Shown: one piece after another, positions 1-41,779 of the stretch
Layout of the letters: every line of letters starts with the position of its first letter
Numbering within the stretch: the stretch's first letter is position 1
IMG/VR virus record: IMGVR_UViG_3300030333_002333
Coordinates: 1-52,854 of that record
Direction: 5' to 3' (one strand)
From: a virus
Taxonomy: Duplodnaviria > Caudoviricetes
Length of the DNA stretch: 52,854 nucleotides
Position numbers and translations under genes: made by a program
Notes under the pieces: generated by a model
What the model saw: only the letters and a program-made list of their open reading frames with translations
What the model was told of the DNA's origin: nothing
Databases searched by the model: none

Positions 1-269
1 TGAGGCAGTAAATGCCGTTACTCAGTTTATGAGTACTAGAACTGGGGACATGGTAGAAGGTGCTGTTAATCTTGGTGTAGCATCAGGTGTATCTGCTTGG
101 CAAGAGGGATTAAGTGTTGTAGCAGACTCAATGTTTGGAGGTGCTGTAGCAGGTGCAGGCTTCAGGGCTATTGGTAATATGATTAGAGTACCCGGTGCAA
201 AACCAGTTCTTCCCGGAACTCCTTTAAAAGAATTAACTAAAGCCCAGATTAATGAAAAAGCATTAAAGG
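1..269. repeat. Terminal direct repeat, left copy (assembly overlap of a circular/permuted genome)
   Basis: 1-269 matches 52586-52854 (offset 52585) except at positions 4 and 268. Confidence 0.95.
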
Positions 270-3200
270 GTATAGCAGGTTCATTAATGATGGGTTTACC
301 TGCTACTCTAAGAGGTGCTACTACCGAAGAACAAATATATGATTATTTACTAGGTGCTTTCTTTGGACAGCAGGAAATGTATGTTAAGAATAGAAGGGCT
401 ATTGAACACCTAAGGAAGATGAAAACAGAGTACAGAGACCCTGAAACTGATACTCTTGGAACTCCACACCCTGAATTAGTTGAGGGTTGGAAGACATTGG
501 ATAGTGAGACTAAAGGTATTGTAAGAGGTATAGTAGAACAAGATATAAAACAAGGTGGTGTAATATCGCATTTACTTTATAGGGATGACTATAACAAGCT
601 CAAAGCAATGCAGGATGCACAAGGCAAGGCTAAGGAAATATACGAAGGTGAGGTAGTAGAAAGAGTAAGGAGACCAGAAGAAGAATTAACAGAGAGTAGG
701 GATACTACTGGTAATACTGGTGATATGAATCCAGAACTAAGAGAACCTGAAGCCTATGAAGCATTATTTACAAAGACACGACATTATGTTGAAAGATTCC
801 TAGAGAATGAATGGAAGGATGCTCCAGATAAACAATTAGCACTAGAGGATGCTTGGAGAACTGTTAATAGAAAATGGAATGATGTTGTAGAGCGTAATAT
901 TAGACTTCAAGATACAGAAAACCCTGCTCAAGAAATGATTAAATGGGTTAATAAAAAGTATAAAAAGAATATAGTTGAAGGTAATGAAGAATGGAACTAT
1001 TGGACTAAATGGGGACAAGCTAGGAAGTATAATAAGCCAGTACAGGTTGCATCTATTGTACTTGATATTAAGGGAGCCCAAAGAAGACGCAATAGGATGG
1101 ACCCTGAATTAAGGGGACAGACAATACTAGAGCCTGATAATAGATTACATATATTAAATGAAAATCTTGAACCAGATGCTATGAATATGGCTCAAAATAG
1201 TAAGCAGTTAAGAGAACCTGCTAAGATATTAGAAGGTGTCTATGCTAATGAGATACATAAGCATACAGGATTAAGACACGACCCTAGAGACCCTGTTTAT
1301 TTAGTTGTTGACCATGTAGTTAGTAATGTTAAAACAGGTGGTAAGTACTTTAAAGAAGAAAGCTTCTCTGATTTGAGAAGAAATCTAACTCAAGATGCTA
1401 AAGATTTATTTCAACTACAAGCTAAGCAAGGAATGTTTCAAGGTCTTAGTGGTAAAGAACTTAAGACAGTAAAAGAAAAATTTATAGCAAGAGAAACAGA
1501 AGCAAAATATAATAATATAATGCAGAGTACACTAAGGAGTCTTAACGAAAGAGGTTATCTATACTTAGGTGGTAGAGGGGATGCTGAAAGACTGTACTTT
1601 GTTAAGCAACATCCGGGCATTAAAACAAAGATGTTCTTTGAGGGCTCTACTGTACCAAGAAGAGAAAAGAATTTAAGAAATCAAATATTAGACACCCTAC
1701 AAAAAGAAGTTGATAGACAGTTTAGAGAGGGAACTATTAGAGAAAAAGAAGATGTAATGGCTCTTTATGCAAGAGAAAAAAAGCTTTGGCAAGACATTAT
1801 GGCAAGTGGTAGTAGAAATTATGACCAAAGAAGTAGAGGTTACGATAAGCAACAGGCTGGTAAGTTATTCGATAGGACATTTTTAAATAATGTAATGTAT
1901 GATTTAAGTATGAACGGGCTTCCTTTTACTAAGAAAGCAATAAGACAACTTGGTATGCCGGGTATGATTAGAGATGCTAAAGCATTTAATAAGCGTTCAC
2001 AAATATGGTTTACTAATGGAACTCCATCTGACCCAGCATTTATAAAGAGAGTTGCCTCTGAAGAAGCTAGTATCCCAATTCCAGATGAGGGTTATAGATT
2101 TATATTACATGAAGATACAAAAGGTAAAACCTTTTTAAGTAGTCAGGCTAAAGAATATGTCCACACAATGGATGGTGAGATTATTATGTTACCTGAATTA
2201 GTTAAAGCACATAACTTAGAACAAGGATTACCATTAGAAGGTAATGTTAATAAATCTTTTATAGTATCACCGAGTGCTGAACATGGTGCTATGCTTGGTA
2301 AATATCAATTTAAGGGTGCTCCTTCAGAATTAGCCGAAGCAATGAGGGCTAATAATATACATATGATAGTCCCAGAAAGTGCTGCTAAACAATGGGGTTC
2401 AAGACCTATGTATGAAAGATGGGAATGGAGCAATGGTAATATAAAATTATATAAAGCTGATGGTTCACTAGAAAGAAGAGCCTCTAAAAATTGGGATGTT
2501 AATAATTTACCAATAGAAAGTATAAGAACTGTAACTTCAGAAATAACTGGAGATAAGTCTAAGAAAGATGCTAGACTACCAAAACAAATGCAATCTAATT
2601 TAACTCCATTTGGGTATAAACCTATAAAGCACAGAGTTATAGATGAGATATTTGAGAGAGCAAGTAGAAGGTCATTTGAAGGAGACCCTGAGATAAATTC
2701 ATTAGCTGAACAATTACAGGGTATGCCAAATGAAAAGATAGAAAGAAAGATACTTAAGAACATAGAAGATTTAGGTGTGCCACAGTTATTAAAACTAATC
2801 AATGACCCAACTAATGAGTCCTTTGCAGTTAAGGCATACAATAAGATACTTAGAGTTAATGAAAGCATTGTTAATGACTTAATAGCAGAAGGTGAGATTT
2901 CTGGAGAACAAGGTCATGCTATAAAATTAGATGCAATGGAATGGTCCTCTGTCTTTGATAGAATGACATCTTTAAAACCCGGTTCTCTAACTCCACTACT
3001 ACATAAGGTAGGAGATAACTATAGACAATCCGTATTAAGAAATTATATCTTAGCACAAATAGTTAAACCAAAGATGACTAATAGTATTAGTGCAAGAATG
3101 GTTGGTTATGATTCTTACTTACAAAAGAAACTACCTGAGCTTCAGAAGAATGATAATATATTTTATTTAGATGATAGTTATGCTGATAAACAAATGAGAT

Positions 3201-6200
3201 TAGCAGATGGTAGTACCCCAACTCTTGGTGAGATGTGGGAAACATATCAAAGAGGTAATTTATCCAAGGGTGTTAAGAGAAGATATGAACATTTGTTCAC
3301 TGCTATTGCAGTAAGGACTCCTATGGACTCACTCAGTGGGGCTCATAAGCTTAAATTTGCTGGTTTTACGGGCAGAAAAGGCTATGGTGTGGTGTTACAT
3401 CCAAGAACTATGGAAGCACTGGGAGGAGCCGATTTAGACGGTGATAAAGCATCTATATTTTTTGGTGATAAGAAGTGGGGATTTAAGAATAGTTGGAAAA
3501 ATGCATATCATAATCAAAGAAGTGAGTTTTATAGTAGCGATGGTTCCCAAGGTAAGGTCCCAACTGTAAAGATTATTAGTGGTGGTCAGACTGGTGCTGA
3601 TATTGCAGGTAATGAAGTTGCTGTAGCTAGAGGGATGGAGTCAGGTGGTACAGCACCTAAAGATTATGCTACAGACCGTGGTAAAAAACCAGAGTATAAA
3701 GATAAGTATGGCATGGTAGAAATAACTGACCAGCAGACCAAGGGGTATATTGGTAGGGAAAAGAAATGGGGACCTAGAACTGAACAAAACATTATGGACT
3801 CAGATGGTACTGTTATATTTGGTGTTACTAGTTCACCCGGGAGTAAGTTAACTAAAGACCTTGCTATAAAAAATGGTAAACCATATATAGAAAATCCAAC
3901 TCCAAGAGAATTAAATGAGTTTTTAATAGAAGAAGGTATAAAAGTTTTAAATGTAGCAGGTAATAGAGAGAGGAAAAACCCGGGTATAAATAAGAAGGTT
4001 AAAGAGATACTTAATGAAGCACTTGAAGAGAAGGCTCCCGACAGAGAAATAGAGATAGAACATAACAAACCTGAAGATATGCGTAAGCTTCTAGCTGAAG
4101 ATAATCCTGAGACTTTAAGTAGGATTAAAAGTTATTCTTTAAGGTTCTCTCCACTCATGAGATATCAAGCAAGTAAAGCAGCCTATGAGGGTAGGGCTAT
4201 GCTTGGTCCTGCTGTTGTAAATAGAGCGACCCTACTAGGTGCTTATAACCAAATAAGAACATACCTAGAGCATACAGGACAGCCAAAGTTAGTTAAGAAA
4301 ACTAGAGATGGTAAGGTTTTGTGGGAAGTTACTCCTAGAATAAGCAAGGCAGAGTTAAAGAAATTCAGAAAGATTGCTAGAGCATCTGTTGCATTAGCAT
4401 CTGACCCTATGGATGAGGCTGGTTTAAAGAACATAGATACTTTTTATAATAGTGTATTTGATTCTTTGTTTAAAATGAGAAAGGCAAGTTATGACAGAGT
4501 CACTGGTGAGTTTAAAGGATGGAGGGAGAATGACCAATTAAGTACATCAGAAAGAAAGAAGATTGGTGCTGGTACAATGTCTGCTATTAACTCAGCATCC
4601 TTTGGTAGGAATTTAGAGACAGGTAACAAACATAGTTTTTATGATTTTTACAACACAATGGAAAGAGCTTATAAAGAATTACCATATACAGAGGAGATTG
4701 GATTTGGCAATGCATTCCATACTAAGATTGCAGAATTAGTTAGAGGATTAGATTGGAATGATAGCATGGTCCACAGGATTGATTCAAATAGATTAGCTGG
4801 TTGGTATGAAAGAATAGCAGAGACATTTAGCAAGGCTGAGTATAAAGATATACAATCTCTATTAGGAAGAGATAAGCCTACAGGTTCATTAAGTATCACT
4901 ATGAACAGACCACTACAGTTGGTATTGGAAAATAAAATATTTGAAGTCTTTAGTAGGAACAGACATATATGGTCAGATGACCCAGAGTCACCTAGTTTTT
5001 CTAAGTTAGTTAATGAGAACGCTGACTTGTTTTATAATTTCTTTAGGAAACATAATCCTGATATAACTCTTATGAATCAAGTTGAAAAGTTAAAGGGCAT
5101 GACTATTGAAAAGGCAGCGAGAGAGTATGATAAGATAATAACAGAAGATATGAGAAAAGACCATCATGCTTATAATGATGTAGTCAAAAGAGATGCTGAT
5201 ACTGGGGAGTTAATAGCATTTGGAGCACACAGAAAAGCAAGGAAGAGGGGTGCTAAAAAACATTGGACATTAGATGGACATAGGTCTAATAGGATTTCAG
5301 AAAAAGATATGATTCAATTGTCTGGTGGAATCAAGATGATGGATACAAAGACTAGAGCTAAAATGGTAGATGAACTACTTAAGTTGTCTAGTGATGCTAT
5401 TAGTAATGACCTTGGAGACTGGGCAAGTGCAAGACTTATTAATGAAGTATGGGCAAGGGATTCTATAAGTGGTAAAAGATTTCAAGAACTAGCAAAACTA
5501 TCTGATAAGGTTCAAAGATTGAGGCAAAAGCTTGATAAAGAAAGGGATATGGTAGCATCCTTAGAAGATATTGAAATGTCTGATGGTCAGAGAAAACAAA
5601 TAGAAAAATTAAGTGAGTTAATTGCAGGTGAAAGAACCTCTGGAGAGATGGACCAAAGAAGAGTTGATAATTTTATCCGAAGAGAAAAAGATAATATGAC
5701 TCAAGCAGAACAAGACCTATTTGATTCTCTATTAATATCTAGTTGGAAAATTGGTGAGCCAGCAAGAGTAAGGAAGATGAATAATCTTATTGATGTTATA
5801 ATAAAACAAAGACCACCAAAGAAAGGTCCAGAGCGTACTAGGTGGTTCCAACAGGTTAAGAACCTTGAGGAATTTAGAGACCAGAAGGCTAGGGAATTAC
5901 ATAATACAAAATTTAATAAAGTGGGATTCGCATCTAAAGAAGTAAGTGACCATATCATTAAGAGACAGATGGATATTATGGAAGAAGCTTATAATTCTTT
6001 TAGATATGAGGATAGCTTACGGGATACAAGGGTTGCTGAGGCACAATTAAAAGAGCTTGAAAAAGAAAATGCCAAGCAACCTTTGTTTAATGAGCAAGGT
6101 GAAAGATTGCAAGGTATAGCAATAGAGCAAAGGCACTATAGTCGTAAGACTCAAAAGTGGATGGAGGATTATGTTCCTTTTGAAGACCTGCTTAAGTATG

Positions 6201-9200
6201 AAAAAATAAAGGCAGACCCTGAAGCAAGGAAGATATTAAATAGCCTAAAAGACCATTTAAATTATTATGGTCCAAAGACTGCAGAGGATTTACACCTTAT
6301 AGTCAGAGGTATGGTTAATAAAGATATCAATGTTATGACATTACAAGATTGGAAGATTGTTGATAATATATTTAAATCATATAGGAGAGGGACTTGGTTT
6401 CAAAATTTTAAAGATAGCATTAAGAAAGGAAAATTCCCTGACTTACAAGCTAGGAATTATAGAATGTTTCCAGAGGCTATAGATAGAAACATAACAAGGT
6501 ATGAAGCTAAGTGGGCTGATACAGAAACTATATATAGAGATAAGTATGGTAACTGGATTACTGGTAGAGCAAAAGAAATGCAGGGATGGATGGGTGAGAT
6601 ACAGAATGGTATTCACTTAAGTACAGAGATTGGAACTATGCAGACTCAAAGAGAAGAGAGAGCTTGGAATGATTCAGTAGAAAGATATCTCAATACAGAA
6701 CTAGGTGAAGACCTATGGTGGTATTCAGTTGCTAAGTTTGAAGCAGATTATGTACCAAAACAATTAAGAAAAAACCCTGTGTTTGATGAACTATCAGAAT
6801 CATTTGCTCAGACTTATATAAAAAGACATGAGAAATGGCATGAAAAATTAAACTGGGATGAGACTCAAAGTAGATTACTTACATTAACTGATGGTAAAAG
6901 ATTGACTGCTGGAGAGATAAGTAAAAAAATACAGGAACTAATTGCAGTAAAGAATGCAGAGAACCATCAACTCCTAAAAGGAGAAGAAGGTTTCATGGAA
7001 AAAGAGTTCCAACTATGGGGACCAATGAAGTGGAAGAAGGGTGGAAAAACTATAAGAGGACCACTCTATTATAAGATAATCAATAACAAGACAGGGATAG
7101 CAGAGATAACAGACATTCCAGTTGTAAGTAGAAAGAAAGTTATAGAGTACTTTACACAGAAGTTGAGACATGGAGAAGCTTTTCCAGAGAATCAACTTGG
7201 TATAGATGGGATAAGAAAATTAATGTTAAGTATGCAGGTGGGTCAGTTAAGAGCACAAGAAAGAAAGACTGAAAGAACAGGTAGAATTAACCATACTGAT
7301 TCGAGAAATCTATCTGCTAGGTTATTAAAGAAAGAGATTACTCCTACTGGTACACTTGGTGAGGTTAGATATGTTAATGGAAAGAAAGCAATTTATGGAT
7401 ACTATCCTCATGTAAGTAAAATGTTTGAGAGGGATGTTATTGTTGGTGACTTAGCTCAAAAGATTAAAGCAATTTGGCGTAGTAACTTACCTAAAGAAGA
7501 AAAAGAAATGAAGGCTGCTAAATTATATCTAAGAAGTAAGCAGTTATCTGGTGACTTTGCAGAGAGAGACCCTATGAATGATAGTTGGGAAGTTGTTAGT
7601 GATGCTATTATAAGAATGCAACAAGGTAAGGAAATTAAAAAAGAGATGGGATGGTTTGAAGGGCTATCAAGAATTAGTAATCAATTCTCAAGAGAAAGCC
7701 ATGTTGATGGATGGAACATGGGACCAGAAGCCTATCTTGAATACACTAATAGTATTTATAAATCATTCTATCGTTCAATAGGACAGATAATGGCTCGTGA
7801 ATCTATCATGAGTTTTGCAGAGAAACATCCTGATATGCCACAGAATTTAAAAACAAGTTGGATGAATTTCTTTAAGCTATATGCACAGCAATCATTAGGG
7901 TTCCCTGCTGAGATACCTGATGCTATGTATGATAATAAAGATATGAAAATAAAGGGTACATTGTATGGTGCGTTAGCAGATAATAGAGTAGCCAGAAGAC
8001 TAGATAAGATGGCTGATATACTTAAGTTAAAAGATAGGAAGGGTAATCTACCAAAAGAATTAAAAGCATTGAATAAGGTAGATGCACAAACAGTAATTAA
8101 CTTGAGTAACATGGAAGCAAAGTATGCACTTGCTACATTGTTAGCCCATCCTAAATCAAGCGTTGGTAATTATCTAGGTGGTACTCAAATGACTATCATT
8201 AATTCGGGTTGGAATAATTTTAGAAAAGCAAGAAGTCTTGATTATCTTAGGAAGACTATTGACCCAGAGTTTAAAAGCTGGGAAGATGTTAATAGGTGGG
8301 TAAGAGAGCTTGGCATCATTGAAGAGTTTATACTTAGGGAGGTTGGTGCCAACCCACAATTAACTGGTGTTAAATGGAATAGTTTTTTAAAGGATTTCAA
8401 ACAAGCATTAAATAAGGACCCTAATCTACCTGATGTTACCCTTAGGGATATGATGAAGAGACATGGTTTAACTAGGACTATGACAGATATAGCAGGTAAG
8501 TTTATGTCTATACCTGAAAGAACTCTTCGTAGGGATTCATTTATAGCTCATTATATACAAGCAAGAGATAAACTTGGTGGTAGAATACTACCTAAGGACC
8601 ATCCTTACTTAATAGAGATGGGTAAGAGAGGTGTTAAGGCGACCCAGTTCTTATACTCTGTACCATTTAGACCAATGTTTGCAGGAACTGCAATGGGTAA
8701 GGTACTAACTAGGTTTCAGTTATGGGCTTGGAACAGTGTAAGATTTAGAAATCAAGTAATAAGAGAAGCAAGTGAAAGAGGAATAAATGAGCACACTCCT
8801 GAGTTTCAAAGGTTTAAAAGACTTGCTATATCAGATGCATTCTCATTAGCATTAGGTTCTATGTTTATGTATTCATTATTCGGTTCACAGATGCCACAGC
8901 CTTATGCTTGGTTCCAAGATTTATCTGATTGGATGTTTGGTGATGAGAAGGACAGGGACAGGGCTTTCTTTGGTGCTTATCCTTCACAGGTAGCACCATT
9001 ACAGTTAATAACACCACCTAGTGCTAGATTAACAGGACCAATACTTAACGGTCTTATTAATGGAGACTGGGAGAAAATGTCTAACTATTATATCTGGACA
9101 ATGTTCCCATTTGGTAGGTTAGCAAGAGACCTCTTTGGTCCGGGTGGATTAACAGAGAATCCATACTACGGATTAGATAAGATGACAGGTCTACCAGTAG

Positions 9201-9325
9201 TAGCATCAAAAAGATTATCTACTAAGAGAAAGAAAGAAGAAGAGAAAGGTACTGAGTTCTGGACTCCACCGGGATTAAAGGTATCTAAGTATTTTACAAC
9301 AGGTGAAGAGGAGGATGAAGCCTAA
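29..9325 (+). CDS. Giant virion/ejection protein with double-psi-beta-barrel RNA polymerase core (putative virion RNAP) and inserted cpYpsA/SLOG domain; true start probably 52095 across the junction (~3271 aa)
   Basis: AVRTP (R at 3314) then GGADLDGD (DLDGD 3431-3445); upstream MDGEII (2168) and GKYQFKG (2297); KIISGGQTGAD...RTEQNIMDSDGT...VLNVAGNRE at ~3566-4030; lies at the end of the structural operon. Confidence 0.8.
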   Translation: MSTRTGDMVEGAVNLGVASGVSAWQEGLSVVADSMFGGAVAGAGFRAIGNMIRVPGAKPVLPGTPLKELTKAQINEKALKGIAGSLMMGLPATLRGATTEEQIYDYLLGAFFGQQEMYVKNRRAIEHLRKMKTEYRDPETDTLGTPHPELVEGWKTLDSETKGIVRGIVEQDIKQGGVISHLLYRDDYNKLKAMQDAQGKAKEIYEGEVVERVRRPEEELTESRDTTGNTGDMNPELREPEAYEALFTKTRHYVERFLENEWKDAPDKQLALEDAWRTVNRKWNDVVERNIRLQDTENPAQEMIKWVNKKYKKNIVEGNEEWNYWTKWGQARKYNKPVQVASIVLDIKGAQRRRNRMDPELRGQTILEPDNRLHILNENLEPDAMNMAQNSKQLREPAKILEGVYANEIHKHTGLRHDPRDPVYLVVDHVVSNVKTGGKYFKEESFSDLRRNLTQDAKDLFQLQAKQGMFQGLSGKELKTVKEKFIARETEAKYNNIMQSTLRSLNERGYLYLGGRGDAERLYFVKQHPGIKTKMFFEGSTVPRREKNLRNQILDTLQKEVDRQFREGTIREKEDVMALYAREKKLWQDIMASGSRNYDQRSRGYDKQQAGKLFDRTFLNNVMYDLSMNGLPFTKKAIRQLGMPGMIRDAKAFNKRSQIWFTNGTPSDPAFIKRVASEEASIPIPDEGYRFILHEDTKGKTFLSSQAKEYVHTMDGEIIMLPELVKAHNLEQGLPLEGNVNKSFIVSPSAEHGAMLGKYQFKGAPSELAEAMRANNIHMIVPESAAKQWGSRPMYERWEWSNGNIKLYKADGSLERRASKNWDVNNLPIESIRTVTSEITGDKSKKDARLPKQMQSNLTPFGYKPIKHRVIDEIFERASRRSFEGDPEINSLAEQLQGMPNEKIERKILKNIEDLGVPQLLKLINDPTNESFAVKAYNKILRVNESIVNDLIAEGEISGEQGHAIKLDAMEWSSVFDRMTSLKPGSLTPLLHKVGDNYRQSVLRNYILAQIVKPKMTNSISARMVGYDSYLQKKLPELQKNDNIFYLDDSYADKQMRLADGSTPTLGEMWETYQRGNLSKGVKRRYEHLFTAIAVRTPMDSLSGAHKLKFAGFTGRKGYGVVLHPRTMEALGGADLDGDKASIFFGDKKWGFKNSWKNAYHNQRSEFYSSDGSQGKVPTVKIISGGQTGADIAGNEVAVARGMESGGTAPKDYATDRGKKPEYKDKYGMVEITDQQTKGYIGREKKWGPRTEQNIMDSDGTVIFGVTSSPGSKLTKDLAIKNGKPYIENPTPRELNEFLIEEGIKVLNVAGNRERKNPGINKKVKEILNEALEEKAPDREIEIEHNKPEDMRKLLAEDNPETLSRIKSYSLRFSPLMRYQASKAAYEGRAMLGPAVVNRATLLGAYNQIRTYLEHTGQPKLVKKTRDGKVLWEVTPRISKAELKKFRKIARASVALASDPMDEAGLKNIDTFYNSVFDSLFKMRKASYDRVTGEFKGWRENDQLSTSERKKIGAGTMSAINSASFGRNLETGNKHSFYDFYNTMERAYKELPYTEEIGFGNAFHTKIAELVRGLDWNDSMVHRIDSNRLAGWYERIAETFSKAEYKDIQSLLGRDKPTGSLSITMNRPLQLVLENKIFEVFSRNRHIWSDDPESPSFSKLVNENADLFYNFFRKHNPDITLMNQVEKLKGMTIEKAAREYDKIITEDMRKDHHAYNDVVKRDADTGELIAFGAHRKARKRGAKKHWTLDGHRSNRISEKDMIQLSGGIKMMDTKTRAKMVDELLKLSSDAISNDLGDWASARLINEVWARDSISGKRFQELAKLSDKVQRLRQKLDKERDMVASLEDIEMSDGQRKQIEKLSELIAGERTSGEMDQRRVDNFIRREKDNMTQAEQDLFDSLLISSWKIGEPARVRKMNNLIDVIIKQRPPKKGPERTRWFQQVKNLEEFRDQKARELHNTKFNKVGFASKEVSDHIIKRQMDIMEEAYNSFRYEDSLRDTRVAEAQLKELEKENAKQPLFNEQGERLQGIAIEQRHYSRKTQKWMEDYVPFEDLLKYEKIKADPEARKILNSLKDHLNYYGPKTAEDLHLIVRGMVNKDINVMTLQDWKIVDNIFKSYRRGTWFQNFKDSIKKGKFPDLQARNYRMFPEAIDRNITRYEAKWADTETIYRDKYGNWITGRAKEMQGWMGEIQNGIHLSTEIGTMQTQREERAWNDSVERYLNTELGEDLWWYSVAKFEADYVPKQLRKNPVFDELSESFAQTYIKRHEKWHEKLNWDETQSRLLTLTDGKRLTAGEISKKIQELIAVKNAENHQLLKGEEGFMEKEFQLWGPMKWKKGGKTIRGPLYYKIINNKTGIAEITDIPVVSRKKVIEYFTQKLRHGEAFPENQLGIDGIRKLMLSMQVGQLRAQERKTERTGRINHTDSRNLSARLLKKEITPTGTLGEVRYVNGKKAIYGYYPHVSKMFERDVIVGDLAQKIKAIWRSNLPKEEKEMKAAKLYLRSKQLSGDFAERDPMNDSWEVVSDAIIRMQQGKEIKKEMGWFEGLSRISNQFSRESHVDGWNMGPEAYLEYTNSIYKSFYRSIGQIMARESIMSFAEKHPDMPQNLKTSWMNFFKLYAQQSLGFPAEIPDAMYDNKDMKIKGTLYGALADNRVARRLDKMADILKLKDRKGNLPKELKALNKVDAQTVINLSNMEAKYALATLLAHPKSSVGNYLGGTQMTIINSGWNNFRKARSLDYLRKTIDPEFKSWEDVNRWVRELGIIEEFILREVGANPQLTGVKWNSFLKDFKQALNKDPNLPDVTLRDMMKRHGLTRTMTDIAGKFMSIPERTLRRDSFIAHYIQARDKLGGRILPKDHPYLIEMGKRGVKATQFLYSVPFRPMFAGTAMGKVLTRFQLWAWNSVRFRNQVIREASERGINEHTPEFQRFKRLAISDAFSLALGSMFMYSLFGSQMPQPYAWFQDLSDWMFGDEKDRDRAFFGAYPSQVAPLQLITPPSARLTGPILNGLINGDWEKMSNYYIWTMFPFGRLARDLFGPGGLTENPYYGLDKMTGLPVVASKRLSTKRKKEEEKGTEFWTPPGLKVSKYFTTGEEEDEA

Positions 9326-25074: not shown

Positions 25075-25285
25075 TTTAAACTCCTACAATAATACACTAT
25101 ATTAACAAAATATATTACCAAAAGAGTACAAGCCAACAACAAAAAAGTTGCTCGCCTATACTCTTTTTGGCAACAAAAAATGCCCCGATACTCGTCAACC
25201 TTTACGGTTGACAGTGGTTATTCCAAACAGCGTTTGCTGAATCACGGGGCATCGCCTCACAGAACTATGCTATCAGAGTTTAGTG

Positions 25286-25753
25286 CTAAGCCTTTGCAGA
25301 CATAGGCATAGAGGTAAACTTACCTCTAATGGTACCTGTGTCTTCAAAATGCACGGCACTATCTTTGATGAGCCGATAGTTTTGTCCAGTAACCTTGTAT
25401 GGGGCAACCCCAGACTCAGGTGTAACCATCGCAAGATGGTTCTGTATTCTCTCGGCAGAGAGACTTACAGGAAGACGCTGGAGCTCTCCAGTGTCTTTAC
25501 ACTTATAGTCTATGGTAACCCATAAAGAGGTGGTATACTGTTTGACGCCATCTATGATGGTCTGTACCCAGACTTCGGCTTTAGCCGCAGCGTCATAAAC
25601 AAGTTTTCCATCCTCTTGGTTATGTATGGACATTTCTATCGGTTCAAAATCTGATAGATTCTCTGCAACAGATTTATCCTCATAGAGACTGGACTTGTCC
25701 ACCTCATGGGATGTATCTGCTTTAGTGGCTGATAGAGTTTTCTTATCAGGCAT
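25286..25753 (-). CDS. Hypothetical protein, first gene of the minus (early) arm
   Basis: 155 aa, AGGAG upstream. Confidence 0.7.
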   Translation of the reverse strand: MPDKKTLSATKADTSHEVDKSSLYEDKSVAENLSDFEPIEMSIHNQEDGKLVYDAAAKAEVWVQTIIDGVKQYTTSLWVTIDYKCKDTGELQRLPVSLSAERIQNHLAMVTPESGVAPYKVTGQNYRLIKDSAVHFEDTGTIRGKFTSMPMSAKA

Positions 25754-25807
25754 TGAAGAGAATTTCTCCTATTTTGTTAAATAGAGATTAGCGAGTATAT
25801 CCAGTAA

Positions 25808-26386
25808 CTTGATATACAAAAGCCTATATGCCGTAAGACGAGTCTTACCATAAGCATATAGTATGCAATATAATATCTATTTAAGAAATAGAAATATTGC
25901 ACTAGGGTGCAAGTGGGGGCAATACGCAGATAAGTACCTCGTCTAATGAGCCCCTGAAACCGAGGCGGAAGCCTCGGCATGGAGGTTTCATCAGGATATG
26001 AAACTTAGCCGTATGTCTACGAAAGATTAGTAATACATGTGGGCATACGGATATGTAGGAACTATCTGTATTACCTCTACTACCAAGATAAGGCTAGGAA
26101 CTCCCTGCTAACTGTGGATAGGGCTAGGCTATCCCAGCGATAGTTTTGGCTTGGTATGACGCTAGTAGCCACGCTACCTCAACTATGTGTGAGCACACAC
26201 CAAAGGTGAATAGTATCGAGTGTGGGAGCACTAGGGGAGTCAGCCCAAGTACCAAACAAAACTATCCTAGCAGGGAGCGGTAGTAGAGAGTGATACGACC
26301 TACATATGTACTAAGTTTCAACCAGAGGGAACCCCATGGGGGTGAAATTAGACGGGGTACCTGCGAGTGTATATCAAGAACTCCCA
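25808..26386 (+). ncRNA. Large (~580 nt) highly structured non-coding RNA candidate
   Basis: Nested stems 25808-18/26368-78, 25934-47/26347-60, 25999-26008/26311-20, 26051-59/26299-307, 26075-84/26279-88, 26101-10/26268-77, 26139-48/26257-66; local hairpins including CCGAGGC-GGAA-GCCTCGG; wobbles are G-U on the plus strand. Confidence 0.7.
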
Positions 26387-26448
26387 TTCTACGGGTAATT
26401 TTGACAAATGACCTTTTTTCAACGACTTTGTCTTTATAATTTCTGACC

Positions 26449-26700
26449 ATGAAAATCGTAACAATATCGTTATTTTGTATATTTTTTAGTGGATTTTTAG
26501 GGAATGGTACCCCTGTAAACCCCATTTTCCATGCTGGTGAGGTTACAGATACAATATTTGAGGAAATAGAGGACCAAGATAGTGTTGTTCATTGGTTTTT
26601 GGACCTACAAGAGGGTGATAAGTACTGTTGGTACCATATGGAGTATGAAAATCTTAAAATTATGCCGAAAAAACTTGACACAACTGCTTACAAGCCTTAG
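26449..26700 (+). CDS. Small secreted/membrane hypothetical protein
   Basis: 83 aa with signal-peptide-like N-terminus; no clear SD. Confidence 0.5.
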   Translation: MKIVTISLFCIFFSGFLGNGTPVNPIFHAGEVTDTIFEEIEDQDSVVHWFLDLQEGDKYCWYHMEYENLKIMPKKLDTTAYKP

Positions 26701-28055: not shown

Positions 28056-28258
28056 TGCCTACCCCATTCCATTGTCATGGCTGTGATAAGCCTACAATGA
28101 ATAGGGATGGCTTATGTGACGACTGTGTTCGAGATAAGCATAAACCACAAGACGGGAAGAAAGTCTTATCCCGTGTATACTCTAAAGGAAGCAGAGGAAA
28201 AGGGAATACAATGCAAACATTGGAAAGACGCTCAAGAGGGAGAATACTGCGTTTCTGA
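28055..28258 (+). CDS. Possible small zinc-finger protein overlapping the next gene
   Basis: CHGC-x10-CDDC; TAATG-coupled start; 152-nt out-of-frame overlap with 28107. Confidence 0.4.
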   Translation: MPTPFHCHGCDKPTMNRDGLCDDCVRDKHKPQDGKKVLSRVYSKGSRGKGNTMQTLERRSRGRILRF

Positions 28259-28916
28259 TGATAACTATGTATCATTAGTATTAAAGAGAAAAAAGTATGA
28301 ATCTGATAGAAGTCAAGCCACATTGTATATCCGAACCCCTTATGGCTACATTATGCACAATCCGAAATACAAGACTCAGAAATTTTATGCTGAGGGCAGG
28401 TCTACCCCTTGGACCCTCTCTGGGAAACCAGCCCTTGAAGTACAGTCTCGTTCCGAAAGATGGAAAAACCTTGCCCTCGCATATGTTTCAACAAACTTTG
28501 ATGCAGACCTTGCTATTGATATGGTCATGGGTCAAACAACTCCCCAGCAAAGAAGACGCTGGAAACGAAGAATAAGAACAGAGGAGTTTAAGAAAGTGGT
28601 AAGAGAAGAATTAGATGTATTATTAAAAGACTCTGGTAAGGACCGTGAATATGTCATGGACTTGTTGGAGGAAGCTATACAGATGGCACGAGACAAAAAA
28701 GATGTTACAAATATGATGAGAGTTGTTGAAAAGCTTATGTCATTACATGGTATGGATGATAAGGATACAGTAAAGACAACTCGACAGATAGAGGGTGTAT
28801 CAACTAAAAAACTAATAGCCGATGTTCTGGAGGAGGAACAAAAGTTAAAACTCACAGAAACAACGGAAGGCAATGGAGAACTACGAGGAAAAGTATCAGA
28901 AACTTCAGGTTCTTAA
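28107..28916 (+). CDS. Putative terminase small subunit
   Basis: Directly upstream of and overlapping TerL; C-terminal helices (VMDLLEEAIQMARDKKDVTNMMRVVEKLMSLHG) typical of TerS. Confidence 0.6.
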   Translation: MAYVTTVFEISINHKTGRKSYPVYTLKEAEEKGIQCKHWKDAQEGEYCVSDDNYVSLVLKRKKYESDRSQATLYIRTPYGYIMHNPKYKTQKFYAEGRSTPWTLSGKPALEVQSRSERWKNLALAYVSTNFDADLAIDMVMGQTTPQQRRRWKRRIRTEEFKKVVREELDVLLKDSGKDREYVMDLLEEAIQMARDKKDVTNMMRVVEKLMSLHGMDDKDTVKTTRQIEGVSTKKLIADVLEEEQKLKLTETTEGNGELRGKVSETSGS

Positions 28917-30372
28917 AAAGTTTAGGGAAAATATTGGTCTTTTTGGGAAAGTGTGTTTTCCTACTGCTCTCAATAGGGATATACCACCATTCCATACTGA
29001 GCTTTATTCCCATCTTCGCAACGAGGAAAAACGGAGGCTACTTATCGCAGCTCCCCGTGGCACTGCTAAGTCTACTACTGTGTCTCTCATTTACCCCTTA
29101 TGGAAGGTCGCATTTAAACCCGAAGATGAAGACTTATTCATTGTCATTATATCAGAAAGCCAAAGCCAGTCTGTCAACTTTCTATCGAGGATAAAATACC
29201 ATCTTTCACACTCAAAGACATTCTCAGAAAACTTCGGAGACATGGGTCCCTCTACTGCTCGTAGGTGGACTAATAATGATATTATTCTTGCAAATGGTTC
29301 TCGTATCATTGCTGTGGGGACTGGTCAACGGGTTAGAGGATTCATTGAGGGTGATACAAGACCTAACCTTATTATTATTGACGACTTTGAATCTGAGTTA
29401 AATGCATTCACTCCAGAAGCTAGGGCTAAAAATCGTAAGTGGATAACTGAGGCTGTGATACCATCATTGTCAGATGATGGTAGAATAGCCATGATTGGGA
29501 CTGTAATCTCAGAAGATTGCTTCTTATGTTGGGCTAAGGAATCACCTGCTTGGGATGTATTATGGTATTCTATATGGGATGATGATGAGAATAGTTTATG
29601 GGAAGCAAGGTTTCCTAAAGAAAGAATACTCCAAATTAAAGATGAGTTTGCTAGTGTAGGTAATCTTAATGGATTTTATCAGGAGTATATGAATATAGCA
29701 CAATCTCCTGATGATGCTCCTTTTAAACCAGATTATATCCAAATACATCACTATGATTTTGAAATTAGGGATGGACAGTCTCTACTTGTTAAAAAATTGC
29801 CCGATGATAAAGAAGAGTTAAAACCAGTAGCAGTATACTCTGGAGTGGACCCAGCATCCTCATTATCTATGAAAGCTGACTTTTTTGTTATTGCAACGCT
29901 AGGTATAGATAATGATGGGAATGTTTATGTTATTAATATAGTAAGAACTAAGATAGACCCTAGTGACCAGCCAGATGCTATTATAAGACAATTTAAAAAA
30001 TACAAACCAAAGAGGATGAAGATTGAAACAGTTGCATATCAGGAAGCATTGAGAAGTGCTGTTAGGAAACAAATGCAAGAAGAAGGATTATATATCCCCG
30101 GACTAGAGAAAGGCGTTAAACCCAGAAATAGAAAATCAGAGCGATTACTTTCACTTGTACCACTTCTTGCTAAAAAACAGTTCTATTTCAGACCTCAAGA
30201 TATAGAAGCACAGTCTGAGTTCTTATCTTACCCCCGTGGTAAACATGATGATGTCATGGATGCAGTATGGACCGCATTAGAAGGTTCAAGACCTAGTAGA
30301 AGAAAGCATTTTACACCTGTCGATGAGTCAGGTAATTTTGGCAGAAAAGTACTTGACTGGATGACAATGTAA
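28873..30372 (+). CDS. terL: Terminase large subunit
   Basis: APRGTAKST Walker A, LIIIDDFE Walker B, GVDPA and HDDVMDA nuclease motifs. Confidence 0.95.
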   Translation: MENYEEKYQKLQVLKKFRENIGLFGKVCFPTALNRDIPPFHTELYSHLRNEEKRRLLIAAPRGTAKSTTVSLIYPLWKVAFKPEDEDLFIVIISESQSQSVNFLSRIKYHLSHSKTFSENFGDMGPSTARRWTNNDIILANGSRIIAVGTGQRVRGFIEGDTRPNLIIIDDFESELNAFTPEARAKNRKWITEAVIPSLSDDGRIAMIGTVISEDCFLCWAKESPAWDVLWYSIWDDDENSLWEARFPKERILQIKDEFASVGNLNGFYQEYMNIAQSPDDAPFKPDYIQIHHYDFEIRDGQSLLVKKLPDDKEELKPVAVYSGVDPASSLSMKADFFVIATLGIDNDGNVYVINIVRTKIDPSDQPDAIIRQFKKYKPKRMKIETVAYQEALRSAVRKQMQEEGLYIPGLEKGVKPRNRKSERLLSLVPLLAKKQFYFRPQDIEAQSEFLSYPRGKHDDVMDAVWTALEGSRPSRRKHFTPVDESGNFGRKVLDWMTM

Positions 30373-30397: not shown

Positions 30398-32551
30398 ATG
30401 GCTGAGAAAAGTACATCTAAGAAAAGTTTAGTAGAGGAAACCCAAGACCTCTTTACCGATTATTCCAATAATAGAGAAAAATGGGCTATTCAAGCCCAAG
30501 AAGATAGGGAATTTCGACTAGGACAGCAATGGACAAAAGAACAGGCTCGTACATTAAAAGAGCGTGGTCAAGCTCCAATTGTAGTAAATAGACTTCATCC
30601 AGCAGTAGAAATGGCAAAAGCATTACTAACTGCTAACAGACCCCAGTTTAGAGTATCACCCAGAGAAGATAGCGATAATCAAGTAGCTCAATTAATTAAT
30701 GGATTACTTGCTTATATGTGGGATATATCAGATGGTGTATCAACTCTTCGTGGAGTAGTAGATGATTACTATGTTTGTGGTATGGGCGTAATGATGGTTT
30801 ATCAAGACCCATTAAGGGATAATGGTAAGGGTGAAGTTGTTATTAGAGATGTGGACCCATTAGATGTTTATATAGACCCTAATTCTAGGGATAGATTCGC
30901 AGATGACGCTGAGAACATCATTATATCAAGGATGTTTACAAAGAAACAGGCTGAGAAACTCTATCCTATGTATGATTCGAAAATTAAAAATGCTACATCC
31001 GATAGGAGTTCTGATAGACCTTCTACTGGAAGAGAGCATGATGGAAAGGCAATATTCCCTGAAGATATTGAAACAATGACTGATTCTGCACTTGGTAAGT
31101 CAGATGAGTATGTAAGAGGTTATGAAAGATACTATAAGGAAATGGTATCCAGATATAGAATACATGAGTCTTTTACAGGTAGAGAAGCAGTAATGGATGA
31201 TGAGGAATTTCAAGCCTATATCCAGCAACCAGCTTGGTATATAGAGGGAAGACCTGTTATAAGACAGGATTTAGCTCAGCAAACTATTCAACAATTAATG
31301 CAAGCTCATGCACAAATGATAGAACAGGCTCAACAGGGTGGTGGCTCAACTGAAGGATTACCACCAGAACCTGAGATAGAACAGGTTACTGTAGAGCAAA
31401 TGATAAAAGATGAATTAATAAGGGTTGTAGAAATAAATGCTTGTAGAGTATGTCAAGTAGTAGTTATGGGTGACCAACTTCTTTATAAGAGGGTTTTACC
31501 TACCGATAAATATCCAGTAGTACCATTTATGAATATTCACACTAGGACACCTTATCCTATGTCTGATATTAGAATGTGTAAGGATATGCAAGAGTATATA
31601 AATAAGACTCGTTCTTTAATTATAGCTCATGCTACCACAAGCACAAATGTAAAGATTTTAGTTCCAGCAGGTTCAGTTGATATGAGAGAGTTTGAGTCTA
31701 AATGGTCTCAACCGGGAGTTGCAATCGAAGTAGATTTCGACCAAGGAGCACCTCAGCCAGTTCAGCCCCTTCCACTACCAAATGAACTATATCAGAATGA
31801 ACAGACTGCGAAATCAGATATTGACCACCAACTTGGTCTTTATGAGTTAATGATGGGGAATTCTCAAGCCGCCCCTCATACTTATAAAGCCACAGTATCT
31901 ATTGATGACTTTGGTCAGAGAAAGATAAAATCAAAGTTGATGGACATAGAAGCTGGTCTGAGTCGGGTGTGTGCTGTTGCAATCCCACTTATGCAACAAT
32001 TGTACCAAGAAGAAAAAGTTATCCGTCTGGTGCAACCCAACAATACGACCAGCGAATATTTAATTAACAAGAATTATTATGACGATTTTACTGATTCCAT
32101 ACAAAAGTTTAATGACATTGGAATAGGTAGTTATGATGCAGTAATTGTTACTGGGTCTACATTACCTACAAATCGTTATGCTCAACTCGAACTCTATATG
32201 GATGCTTATCGTAATGGATTGATAGACAAAGAAGAAGTTCTTAAGAAGACTGAAATCTTCGATGTCGAGGGCGTTCTTATGAGAACTGACACAATTGAAC
32301 AATTACAGTCTCAATTACAAGGTGCTCAAGAACAAATCAAGAAGTTACAAGGTGATATGCAATCTAGGGATAGAGAGAATGTTAATCTTAAACAAAGAGT
32401 TGAGGTTGAAAAATTTAAGGCAGACCTCGATAAGGTTTCTAACCGTGCACAAGCAGCAGGAACCATATATGAAAAACGCCTTGATGACGCTACTAGTGAA
32501 ATAGCATCTGAAATCAAAAGAGCGAAGAAAGATGCTGGCAATAAAAAATAG
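30398..32551 (+). CDS. Portal protein (P22-like)
   Basis: 717 aa after TerL; DREFRLGQQW, VNRLHP, DPLDVYIDP, YPVVPF motifs; C-terminal coiled-coil barrel. Confidence 0.9.
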   Translation: MAEKSTSKKSLVEETQDLFTDYSNNREKWAIQAQEDREFRLGQQWTKEQARTLKERGQAPIVVNRLHPAVEMAKALLTANRPQFRVSPREDSDNQVAQLINGLLAYMWDISDGVSTLRGVVDDYYVCGMGVMMVYQDPLRDNGKGEVVIRDVDPLDVYIDPNSRDRFADDAENIIISRMFTKKQAEKLYPMYDSKIKNATSDRSSDRPSTGREHDGKAIFPEDIETMTDSALGKSDEYVRGYERYYKEMVSRYRIHESFTGREAVMDDEEFQAYIQQPAWYIEGRPVIRQDLAQQTIQQLMQAHAQMIEQAQQGGGSTEGLPPEPEIEQVTVEQMIKDELIRVVEINACRVCQVVVMGDQLLYKRVLPTDKYPVVPFMNIHTRTPYPMSDIRMCKDMQEYINKTRSLIIAHATTSTNVKILVPAGSVDMREFESKWSQPGVAIEVDFDQGAPQPVQPLPLPNELYQNEQTAKSDIDHQLGLYELMMGNSQAAPHTYKATVSIDDFGQRKIKSKLMDIEAGLSRVCAVAIPLMQQLYQEEKVIRLVQPNNTTSEYLINKNYYDDFTDSIQKFNDIGIGSYDAVIVTGSTLPTNRYAQLELYMDAYRNGLIDKEEVLKKTEIFDVEGVLMRTDTIEQLQSQLQGAQEQIKKLQGDMQSRDRENVNLKQRVEVEKFKADLDKVSNRAQAAGTIYEKRLDDATSEIASEIKRAKKDAGNKK

Positions 32552-40736: not shown

Positions 40737-40913
40737 ATGAGTAATCGTAAAAAGCGATTGGAGACAACAGAATGGATGTTTTTAATAAAAGCTTTAGAAA
40801 TGCTAACTATATCTGGTAAGGATGTAAGGAAATTTGTTGAAATACTAGATAAAGTTGAACATCAGACTGAGTTATCCATGGCTAGGGACAATAAACTTGC
40901 AGAAGAGAAGTAA
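40737..40913 (+). CDS. Small helical protein, putative fibre chaperone (copy 2; 58 aa, not in ORF track)
   Basis: AAGGAGG SD; [23 protein letters not shown]...LDKV; TAATG-coupled to the collagen gene. Confidence 0.65.
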
Positions 40914-41779
40914 TGGCTACTTGGAAAAGAATACTTACAACAGATGACACTTCTAGTGGACCACCCGGACCACCCGGACCTACTGGCTCACAAGGACCAA
41001 CAGGTCCTACAGGAGCAACTGGAGGAACCGGTCCAACAGGACCAGCAGGTGAAGATGGAGATGATGGTGGACCGGGACCAACAGGACCAACAGGAAGCAC
41101 TGGGGCACAAGGACCAGCAGGACCAACTGGGTCAACAGGTTCACCGGGACCACCGGGTCCACCGGGACCAGCTGGACCCACAGGACCAAGTGGTAGTAAT
41201 GGCTCTAATGGTTCTGATGGTAGTGATGGTGATGATGGTGCTACATGGCATTTCTCAACTAGTGTAGGTGCACCTCCAAGTGGAACTGGTAAGAACGGAG
41301 ACTTTGCATACCACTCAAGTACTGAAAAGATTTACTATAAAGAGAGTGGCAGTTGGTCTGAGAAATCAGATTTAACTGGTGCACCCGGTCCTCCGGGACC
41401 TACTGGTTCAACCGGAGGTACTGGACCTACTGGTGGAACAGGACCCACTGGACCTGATGGTCCTCCCGGTCCTCCCGGACCAACGGGTTCTCAAGGTCCT
41501 ACGGGACCTGCTGGTGCTGATGGTGATGACGGGTCTGATGGAAGTAATGGACCTCCGGGACCTCCCGGACCTCCGGGTCCGACAGGTAGTAGTGGACCAT
41601 CTGGACCTTCTGGACCTGCAGGACCAGCCGGACCTGCTGGACCAACCGGACCATCTGGTACAGGTTTATCAAATTCTACAAATGACATCATAGGAAGTGG
41701 TGAATTTAAAATTCATGTAGATACTGATGCTCCTACTGCTAGTGATGGTTCTGATGGCGATATCTGGTTTCAATATTAA
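40913..41779 (+). CDS. Collagen-like fibre protein
   Basis: Two runs of ~32 Gly-X-Y triplets separated by a small globular linker; starts MATWKRILT; ends [10 protein letters not shown]. Confidence 0.9.

Follow-up and report, generated by a model that had tools for sequence, protein, structure and literature searches.

We analyzed an IMG/VR record of 52,854 bp (IMGVR_UViG_3300030333_002333; estimated completeness, 98%), hereafter called the window, which comes from an uncultured marine phage. A 695-nucleotide (nt) gap separates two divergent genes at 25286-25753 (minus strand) and 26449-26700 (plus strand), and it is occupied by an element of about 580 nt that an earlier note had singled out as a candidate structured RNA. 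We found that this element is an unusually enlarged member of a structured-RNA family that is common to many uncultured marine phages. The conserved unit of the family is a core of about 120 to 250 nt, in which a hairpin and a G-run precede a long helix built around a TTCAAC loop, and an invariant box makes up the 3' end. As judged from aligned sequences, base pairing is under selection in the window's own clade. The plus strand is likely, but not proven, to be the RNA strand. The element lies upstream of the packaging genes, and short relatives of it lie in bacterial genomes. Our tentative reading is a leader or control RNA that acts in cis on the late operon.

The fold that the earlier note had drawn by inspection was confirmed. 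All seven long-range stems are present: 25808-25818/26368-26378, 25934-25947/26347-26360, 25999-26008/26311-26320, 26051-26059/26299-26307, 26075-26084/26279-26288, 26101-26110/26268-26277, and 26139-26148/26257-26266. Six of them are exact reverse complements. The 14-bp stem is inexact, with one G-U pair (25939/26355) in the minimum free energy (MFE) structure. Each of the four branch hairpins also folds in isolation (-9.1 to -16.1 kcal/mol), and the loop of the one at 25960-25977 is GGAA. The element is also richer in GC than the window (0.451 versus 0.374). RNA folding against shuffled sequences, which the note had proposed for both strands, placed the region far beyond the shuffles. The plus strand of 25800-26400 folds at -244.5 kcal/mol, compared with a shuffle mean of -166.2 kcal/mol (z, -9.1), and the minus strand folds at -224.5 kcal/mol (z, -10.3). 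In both cases, 0 of 20 shuffles were as good. Because both strands fold far beyond shuffles, the z-score alone is no guide to the strand. The element is not a simple inverted repeat, because its left arm has large branch hairpins and its right arm has none. Its parts, in order of position, are as follows.

25808-25818, plus strand: 5' arm of the outer 11-bp stem, CTTGATATACA; pairs with 26368-26378; found in this phage only.
25824-25861 and 25864-25901, plus strand: two 5' hairpins, a window-specific extension; they fold alone at -11.4 and -9.1 kcal/mol, respectively.
25897-25912, plus strand: H1, the conserved 5' hairpin, TTGCACTAGGGTGCAA; aligns with TTGCTGATAGCAA in eight relatives.
25914-25919, plus strand: the G-run, TGGGGG; GCAAGT.GGG is invariant in the clade alignment.
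25925-25947, plus strand: 5' strand of the closing helix, made up of CGCAG (25925-25929) and the 14-nt GTACCTCGTCTAAT (25934-25947); pairs with 26347-26365 in the MFE structure.
25960-25977, plus strand: branch hairpin with the GGAA loop; -13.6 kcal/mol.
25999-26008, plus strand: 5' arm of the closing stem of the inserted domain; exact complement of 26311-26320.
26009-26050, plus strand: hairpin with the conserved block GTATGTCTACGAAAG (26011-26025), which is invariant in nine of nine clade sequences except at one Y position.
26051-26307, plus strand: rod of four 9- to 10-bp stems with side hairpins; a lineage-specific insertion in the alignment with eight relatives.
26271-26392, plus strand: match to the covariance model R1 (66.3 bits; E, 2.3e-15; full model, 1-121), the sole match in the window.
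26316-26322, plus strand: TTTCAAC junction or loop motif, near-invariant across the family.
26347-26365, plus strand: 3' strand of the closing helix, ATTAGACGGGGTAC followed by CTGCG, which includes the conserved GGGGTA; its GGG reaches 90% conservation or more among 29 compact members.
26368-26402, plus strand: the invariant 3' box, consisting of TGTATATC (26368-26375), N9, CATTCTA (26385-26391), N7, and TTTT (26399-26402).

For comparison, we took the best 80 of 515 IMG/VR loci with relatives of the large terminase, TerL. In the closest relatives, blastn matched only the last ~100 nt of the element, and the equivalent gaps still fold into similar nested structures. A clade alignment of nine members (the window and eight relatives) contains several conserved blocks. 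These are a hairpin followed by GCAAGT.GGG, the long closing helix, a GGNA-loop hairpin with a covarying stem, GTATGTCTAYGAAA, TTTCAAC, and the 3' tail TGTATAT.-N-ACTC.CATTCTA. A sequence related to the block GTATGTCTACGAAAG, namely, GTATGTGTAGTAAAA, is seen in more distant phages, and a profile of the clade alignment (nhmmer) also finds the 3' domain in a more distant TerL group. The 3' box is conserved in these TerL-selected relatives, which were chosen independently of the box pattern.

The pattern GTATATC-N9-CATTCT-N8-TTTT is carried by at least 119 viral contigs, and a stricter pattern, with the box and the upstream TTCAAC, by at least 119 metagenome contigs. Removal of duplicates left 75 distinct elements. 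The window has the family pattern, with box parts at 26369-26375, 26385-26390, and 26399-26402 and with TTCAAC at 26316-26322, within the 40-52 nt spacing rule. We built R1 on 29 compact members, with the window excluded. It finds exactly one copy per source in 75 of 75 phage loci (75 matches in 699,399 bases). The TTCAAC motif is present in the tail alignment of the 75 elements; among the 29 compact members, T47, A49, and C51 never vary, and conservation is at least 90% at C48 and A50. The earlier note had suggested that TGGGGG (25914-25919) pairs with CTCCCA (26381-26386) as a pseudoknot, and both segments are present in the sequence. GGGG stands 5' of TTCAAC in 58 of the 75 members. Its candidate partners are a CCCC in the internal loop (51/75) and a CCC in the N9 stretch (44/75), and the two occur without a clear either/or pattern.

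Element length, measured from the upstream gene start to the tail with some boundaries set by hand, ranges from 156 to 646 nt and is 300 nt or less in 54 of 75 members. The window copy is the longest. Between the 5' strand of its closing helix and TTTCAAC, it has an inserted branched domain of about 350 nt, and nothing equivalent to the rod in this domain (26051-26307) is present even in the close clade. This phage is likewise alone in having the two 5' hairpins and the outer 11-bp stem. By eye, the close relatives have no equivalent of the outer-stem 5' arm and align only from the conserved hairpin on, and the hairpins at 25824-25901 have no blastn match in related loci. The second of these hairpins overlaps and competes with H1, whose equivalent, often GNRA-looped, precedes the G-run in compact phage copies and in the bacterial copies described below. 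Because these insertions are lineage specific and most elements are so much shorter, we regard the 580-nt size as the expansion of a far smaller core. The size class of the large RNAs ROOL and GOLLD, in which the note had placed the element, is not supported by a core this small and a length this variable.

The note had also called for homologues and a test of compensatory changes, and such changes are present at the level of the clade. In the clade alignment, 88.5% of the cells at 66 predicted pairs are paired, compared with 82.3% in shuffles (0 of 500 shuffles as high) and 33 to 46% in slid controls. Double-sided compensatory changes occur at 19 of the 66 pairs, against 8.3 in shuffles (0/500). 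The closing helix (helix 2 of the clade) is 87.5% paired over eight distinct sequences. In the GGAA hairpin (helix 4), 6 of 10 pairs have changed on both sides, and the stem of the inserted domain (helix 5) is 87.3% paired, with one CG/GC double change. Across the family, the closing-helix sequences are wholly different, yet in a swap control made on all 75 members, the member's own 3' strand matched the region upstream of it with a mean score of 28.6, against 20.9 for strands taken from other members. The own strand was the best of 16 in 39 of the 75 members, where about 5 would be expected. Variants within the window's own population were also seen. The changes 26167 A>G and 26175 T>C, found on one contig from a DNA run, are pairing partners in the rod and turn A-U into G-C. 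In DNA run X5, the variant 26377 A>G makes the outer-stem pair U25809-A26377 into U-G.

Several observations favor the plus strand as the RNA strand. The plus-strand MFE structure of the element has 13 G-U pairs among 214. The note had counted six wobbles, all G-U on the plus strand. Among pairs stacked on both sides, the plus fold has seven G-U pairs and no A-C 1x1 mismatches, and the minus fold has two G-U and three A-C. Among 31 confidently placed closing helices in the family, there are 34 G-U and 12 A-C, flanked by Watson-Crick pairs and both scored alike; the 40 poorly placed closing helices have 24 and 22, respectively. Of 149 distinct 4-nt loops closed by stems of 4 bp or more, 11 are GNRA on the plus strand and 0 on the minus strand. 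The MFE is better on the plus strand in 53 of 75 members and on the minus strand in 21, with a mean difference of -6.5 kcal/mol to which composition may contribute. The U-G variant of the outer stem pairs only on the plus strand. G-T wobbles are tolerated in DNA hairpins too.

The element keeps a constant place beside the packaging genes. It lies upstream and on the same strand of the homologue of a 269-residue gene in 67 of 75 loci, of TerL in 64, and of the portal gene in 54, and the missing cases are mostly on short contigs. TerL identity across these loci runs from 94% down to 35%, and the distance from the element to the 269-residue gene homologue runs from 124 to ~3,100 nt. On its other side, the flanking gene is conserved in only 1 of 75 loci. 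This constant same-strand position argues that the element belongs to the head of the packaging or late module. In the window, the 269-residue gene starts at 28107, TerL at 28873, and the portal gene at 30398, all on the same strand downstream of the element. TerL matches phrog_38 (2.2e-89), and the 269-residue product is probably the small terminase subunit. No plus-strand terminator was found after the element in the window, and terminator-like sites between -60 and +160 of CATTCT were seen in only 7 of 73 members. The gene setting in the window is as follows.

11.7-25.8 kb, minus strand: gene arm with a primase-helicase, a Sak4-like annealing protein, a Gam-like protein, and an HNH/endonuclease VII gene.
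25286-25753, minus strand: divergent upstream gene (155 residues) without a family match; a homologue lies beside the element in 1 of 75 loci.
From 26.4 kb, plus strand: gene arm with an endolysin, the 269-residue gene, the large terminase, a P22-like portal, the major head protein, and tail fibers; its last member is an open reading frame (ORF) of 3,098 residues.
28107-30372, plus strand: the 269-residue gene (without a family match; placed like a small terminase gene) and then TerL, the conserved downstream partners of the element.

Related modules are also present in bacteria. The strict pattern matched four bacterial genome records, of which three are real: a Marinimicrobia single-cell genome, a Neomarinimicrobiota metagenome-assembled genome (MAG), and an unclassified MAG. 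The fourth copy, in an Oscillospiraceae MAG (L202), was rejected as probably due to chance, as its R1 E value is 0.023 and the rest of the module is missing. The phage-built R1 recognizes seven host copies, with E values of 4.5e-9 to 1.9e-4. The host module is about 100 to 170 nt long and consists of an optional GNRA hairpin, the doubled motif TTCAACC..CTCAACC, a G-rich stretch, and GTATATC-N9-CATTCT-N8-T-run. The GNRA hairpin has compensatory changes between copies. Host copies stand upstream of unrelated cellular genes, namely, HlyD/AcrB, MAPEG and a desaturase, and a beta-lactamase-like protein and an adhesin. In two of the three host genomes, an ORF starts 14 to 15 nt past the pattern, so that several host copies have no room for a separate promoter. 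By eye, the strong Shine-Dalgarno sites of the phage were not seen before the host genes that were looked at.

Five of the scanned host loci have a tRNA gene on the same strand, and host copies (seen at L324, L325, L332, L360, and L362) often lie 150 to 250 nt after such a gene. The host copies are preceded by tandem direct repeats of 11 to 12 nt that differ at each locus. A BLAST survey of 201 genomes of the phylum gave strong matches (~50 nt or more) in six small (~1 Mb) genomes, mostly with two to four listed matches each. We rejected the idea that the host copies are prophages or satellites of this phage type, because no TerL homologue was found in the three host genomes with this TerL query and the neighbors are ordinary cellular genes. 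On the basis of the shared module, such bacteria may be the hosts of the phage clade, which we offer only as a lead.

The element matches no family of Rfam. The earlier note had recognized no tmRNA, RNase P, group I/II, or hammerhead core, and the searches agree. A cmscan search with the 4,227 families of Rfam 15 found no family at gathering score in the window, with only noise at E > 3 in 25600-26600, and ARAGORN found 0 tRNA or tmRNA genes in the window. There were 0 Rfam matches in the loci of 16 relatives (91,953 bases) and only tRNAs in 13 host loci. The Rfam models include ROOL, GOLLD, OLE, raiA, HEARO, 6S, pRNA, group I/II introns, RNase P, tmRNA, and hammerhead. The element had 0 blastn matches in 50,697 deposited phage records. 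The best TerL matches in these records are only ~26 to 27% identical, so the clade is an uncultured one with no cultured relative to read from. Of the note's proposal of a possibly new large phage noncoding RNA, what stands is a maintained and most likely plus-strand structure without an Rfam match; the large size class does not. An integron attC-type site was considered and rejected. attC sites have RYYYAAC and GTTRRRY cores at the hairpin base, and here the ..CAAC is at the loop end of the helix rather than the base; no integrase was found among the phage genes.

Several known systems resemble the element in part. Like the lambda pR' 6S transcript (qut/tR') and the HK022 put RNA, it lies between the early region and the lysis, terminase, and head genes, on the same strand and immediately upstream of them. 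The lambda and HK022 late or put leaders are ~70 to 200 nt long, and to our knowledge they have no comparable conserved multihelix domain. Nothing in the element points to antitermination, but from its position, an action in cis on the operon downstream would be the natural reading. Like the phi29 pRNA, the element is a phage-encoded structured RNA tied to DNA packaging. However, it has no match to the Rfam models, these phages have a P22-like portal with a conventional large terminase and a probable small subunit, and the module is also found in host genomes without a detectable TerL. Riboswitches and protein-binding leaders share with it a junction-rich domain followed by an invariant single-stranded platform, and the host copies stand before transporter and envelope genes. 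Unlike them, the element has no ligand, known aptamer fold, Rfam match, or demonstrated alternative pairing.

ROOL and GOLLD are, like the element in this phage, several hundred nt long, many branched, phage borne, and unexplained in function. PMC5737381 and PMC12286853 place ROOL and GOLLD beside tRNA genes, and some host copies of our element likewise stand just after tRNA genes. The element differs from both in its lack of an Rfam match, its small core, its ~4-fold size range, its fixed place before the packaging operon, and its lack of a terminator. A 2023 study (PMC10690425) reports, in the portion of its text available, 8,495 structured-RNA candidates from IMG/VR, some of them placed consistently upstream of genes. 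These are objects of the same source and kind, and that portion names no terminase-associated motif. Our literature searches found no description of the element, which may be among these 8,495 anonymous candidates.

We suggest the following scenario. The stretch 25808-26402 may be a two-part control element at the early/late boundary of a large uncultured clade of marine podovirus-like phages. Its first part would be a plus-strand RNA domain formed by the 5' hairpin, the G-run, and a long interrupted helix ending in TTCAAC and a C-rich loop. In this phage, the domain appears to be inflated by the branched rod of ~350 nt, the two extra 5' hairpins, and the extra closing stem. The second part would be the invariant and mostly unpaired 3' box, GUAUAUC-N9-CAUUCU-N8-U-run. 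We infer that transcription proceeds rightward through the element into the lysis, packaging, and structural operon. The 3' box could then be an effector platform to which RNA polymerase, the ribosome, or a conserved protein binds, or else it could be sequestered, and the folded domain would set the state of the box in cis. We favor a cis-acting leader or control RNA, with less than even confidence, because the element is at the head of the late operon and because the host copies stand as leaders right before start codons.

A number of results weigh against this reading. The RNA-library contigs, from two libraries, cover 25252-25806 and 25719-25905 and nothing over 25906-26402, so that no transcript over the core was seen; these contigs carry no strand or end information. 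In 25 compact members, we found no sigma-70-type promoter at a consistent position before the 5' hairpin. By eye, many relatives have a good -35/-10 pair (CTTGCA or TTGACA, N17, TATTTT) 60 to 110 nt 3' of the box, and the late genes may thus have a promoter of their own, in which case the element would not have to serve as their leader. For the phages, we rejected the rule of a start codon directly behind the U-run, as an ATG within 12 nt occurs in 21 of 73 members versus 20% of controls. The host-style layout of box and then start codon is therefore not carried over to the phages. The invariance of the 3' box would suit a DNA site too. Crude counts of G-U over whole folds do not tell the strands apart (318 versus 313). 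RNAalifold gave 0 pairs on the 29 mixed compact members. Over all 75 members, one helix in fixed register beside TTCAAC is 54.6% paired versus 52.7% in shuffles (14/500), with double changes not above shuffles. For the same helix, the compact subset gave 59.3% versus 55.1% (0/500) and a covariation score of 0.231 versus 0.178 (1/500), with 7 double-change pairs versus 8.1. In expanded members, the strand beside TTCAAC belongs to another stem.

The 3' box may instead be a DNA site, that is, a late promoter or operator recognized by an alternative sigma factor, or by an activator, that phage and host have in common. The TTCAAC repeats would then be upstream binding sites, and the fold would belong to a distinct transcript upstream or to a regulatory RNA ending there. 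We consider this unlikely but the main rival of the leader reading. The box is invariant across phages whose TerL proteins are only 35% identical, a pattern that suits a site recognized by a protein better than it suits a helix. There are several host copies, each before a different operon and close to an ATG, and the locus-specific tandem repeats before them resemble operator sites. A GTATATC palindrome with the same N9 spacing stands before the leftward gene (25795-25817), and an RNA contig ends nearby at 25806. However, in a comparison by eye, the conserved blocks are not spaced as in the sigma-70 or the Bacteroidetes-type promoter consensus. The 24-nt tail motif has one perfect match in the window, and the rest are as expected by chance, so it is not a general late promoter; a repeated phage promoter was rejected on this ground. 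TGTATATC alone occurs 7 times in the phage versus 2.7 expected, mostly within genes. A search of the phage gene products found no sigma-70 region 2 or region 4 domain. A DNA site also leaves unexplained the covarying helices that reach right up to the box. It is improbable, in our view, that the element is a free-standing stable RNA like ROOL, GOLLD, or the phi29 pRNA, made from its own promoter and acting in trans, for example, in packaging or host takeover. Its ornate multibranch architecture with GNRA loops and its constant place beside packaging genes would suit such an RNA, as would the same-strand tRNA within a few hundred bases in five host loci, the context given for ROOL and GOLLD in PMC5737381. 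Against it are the absence of a match among the Rfam families, of a 3' terminator in 66 of 73 members, and of a recognizable promoter of its own. Its size is not conserved, which makes the large size that prompted the analogy peripheral, and a start codon follows the host copies almost at once.

The element could also mark a replication origin or packaging site, with a primer transcript or single-stranded DNA fold that fires replication at the box and AT-rich tract, or with the box as the pac site of the adjacent terminase. The cumulative GC skew reaches its minimum here, where the gene arms diverge, and an A/T-rich stretch follows the box. The phage has its own primase-helicase, and linkage to terS-like and TerL genes is as expected of a pac site. 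Yet the switch of coding strand explains the skew minimum equally, the host copies stand before ordinary cellular operons in genomes without TerL by this query, and a double-stranded pac site or origin needs no helices kept paired through G-U and double changes. The strand evidence also weakens the single-stranded DNA origin or entry structure that the earlier note had offered as its alternative, and we rate an origin or packaging site as quite improbable. Chance palindromes or a recent functionless inverted duplication are next to impossible. Six perfect stems could mean a young duplication, but z is about -9 to -10 and homologues with compensatory changes exist, and a chance origin of the structure is excluded.

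The sequences on both sides of the element have further features. On the left, GTATATC at 25795-25801 and its inverted copy at 25811-25817 make up the perfect palindrome GTATATC-N9-GATATAC, with a 9-nt spacer, ~40 to 65 nt upstream of the start codon of the leftward gene. The 5' arm of the outer stem forms half of it. This palindrome could be an operator, rather than or besides an RNA stem arm. GCGAGTATATCCAGTAAC (25791-25818) resembles, in its near-copy part (25791-25808), the start of the 3' box (26362-26380) and runs into the inverted copy. Inspection by eye shows another palindrome, GGTAGTA-N9-TACTACC, at this position in close relatives. On the right, a 12-codon ORF at 26408-26446 begins 5 nt past the T-run and ends 2 nt short of the ATG that starts the 83-residue gene (26449); such tiny ORFs are not enriched across the family. 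The 83-residue gene has no Shine-Dalgarno site, and a TATAAT at 26435-26440 would make it nearly leaderless. A second copy of TTTTTTCAACG lies at 26414-26424, ~12 to 20 nt past the T-run, and was also seen by eye in at least 12 relatives. It could be an alternative partner for the GTGAAAT strand or a second binding site. Sigma-70-like motifs, (A/G)CTTGCA or CTTGACA, ~17 nt, and TATTTT, were seen downstream in the relatives L038, L061, L094, L116, and L174 and in others.

Two further features lie elsewhere in the window. The 3,098-residue ORF (window 29-9325) has as its sole Pfam match a circularly permuted YpsA SLOG domain at residues 1182-1331. A GC spike of 0.50 at 41-42 kb was rejected as an RNA, because it is an ordinary tail-fiber gene (40913-41779) with collagen-like Gly-X-Y repeats and tandem periods of 9 and 27 nt.

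Phage structured RNAs of unexplained function rank among the least understood parts of viral genomes. The family described here is abundant in ocean viromes, is fixed at the early/late switch, and tolerates large expansions, and its short relatives lie in genomes from a bacterial phylum that is uncultured and found worldwide. The window copy, the largest seen, would be a natural substrate for structure probing or cryo-electron microscopy. A control RNA would open a way to study how these phages time packaging and, for an uncultured phage clade, would supply a link to the host based on sequence. Should the box prove to be a DNA site, it would still be a conserved late-control or packaging signal of the clade. 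More speculatively, and in our opinion rather doubtfully, the phage and host copies may belong to one previously undescribed class of regulatory RNA that is common to SAR406/Marinimicrobia-type bacteria and their phages. In the cell, it would be a leader of ~100 to 170 nt for transporter and envelope operons. The phages would have captured it to gate their packaging or late operon and, in some lineages, let it grow to 400 to 600 nt, and the GUAUAUC..CAUUCU..U-run box, with the G-run/C-run contacts, would bind a conserved protein or a small ligand. In that case, the phage would read a physiological signal of its host before committing to assembly.

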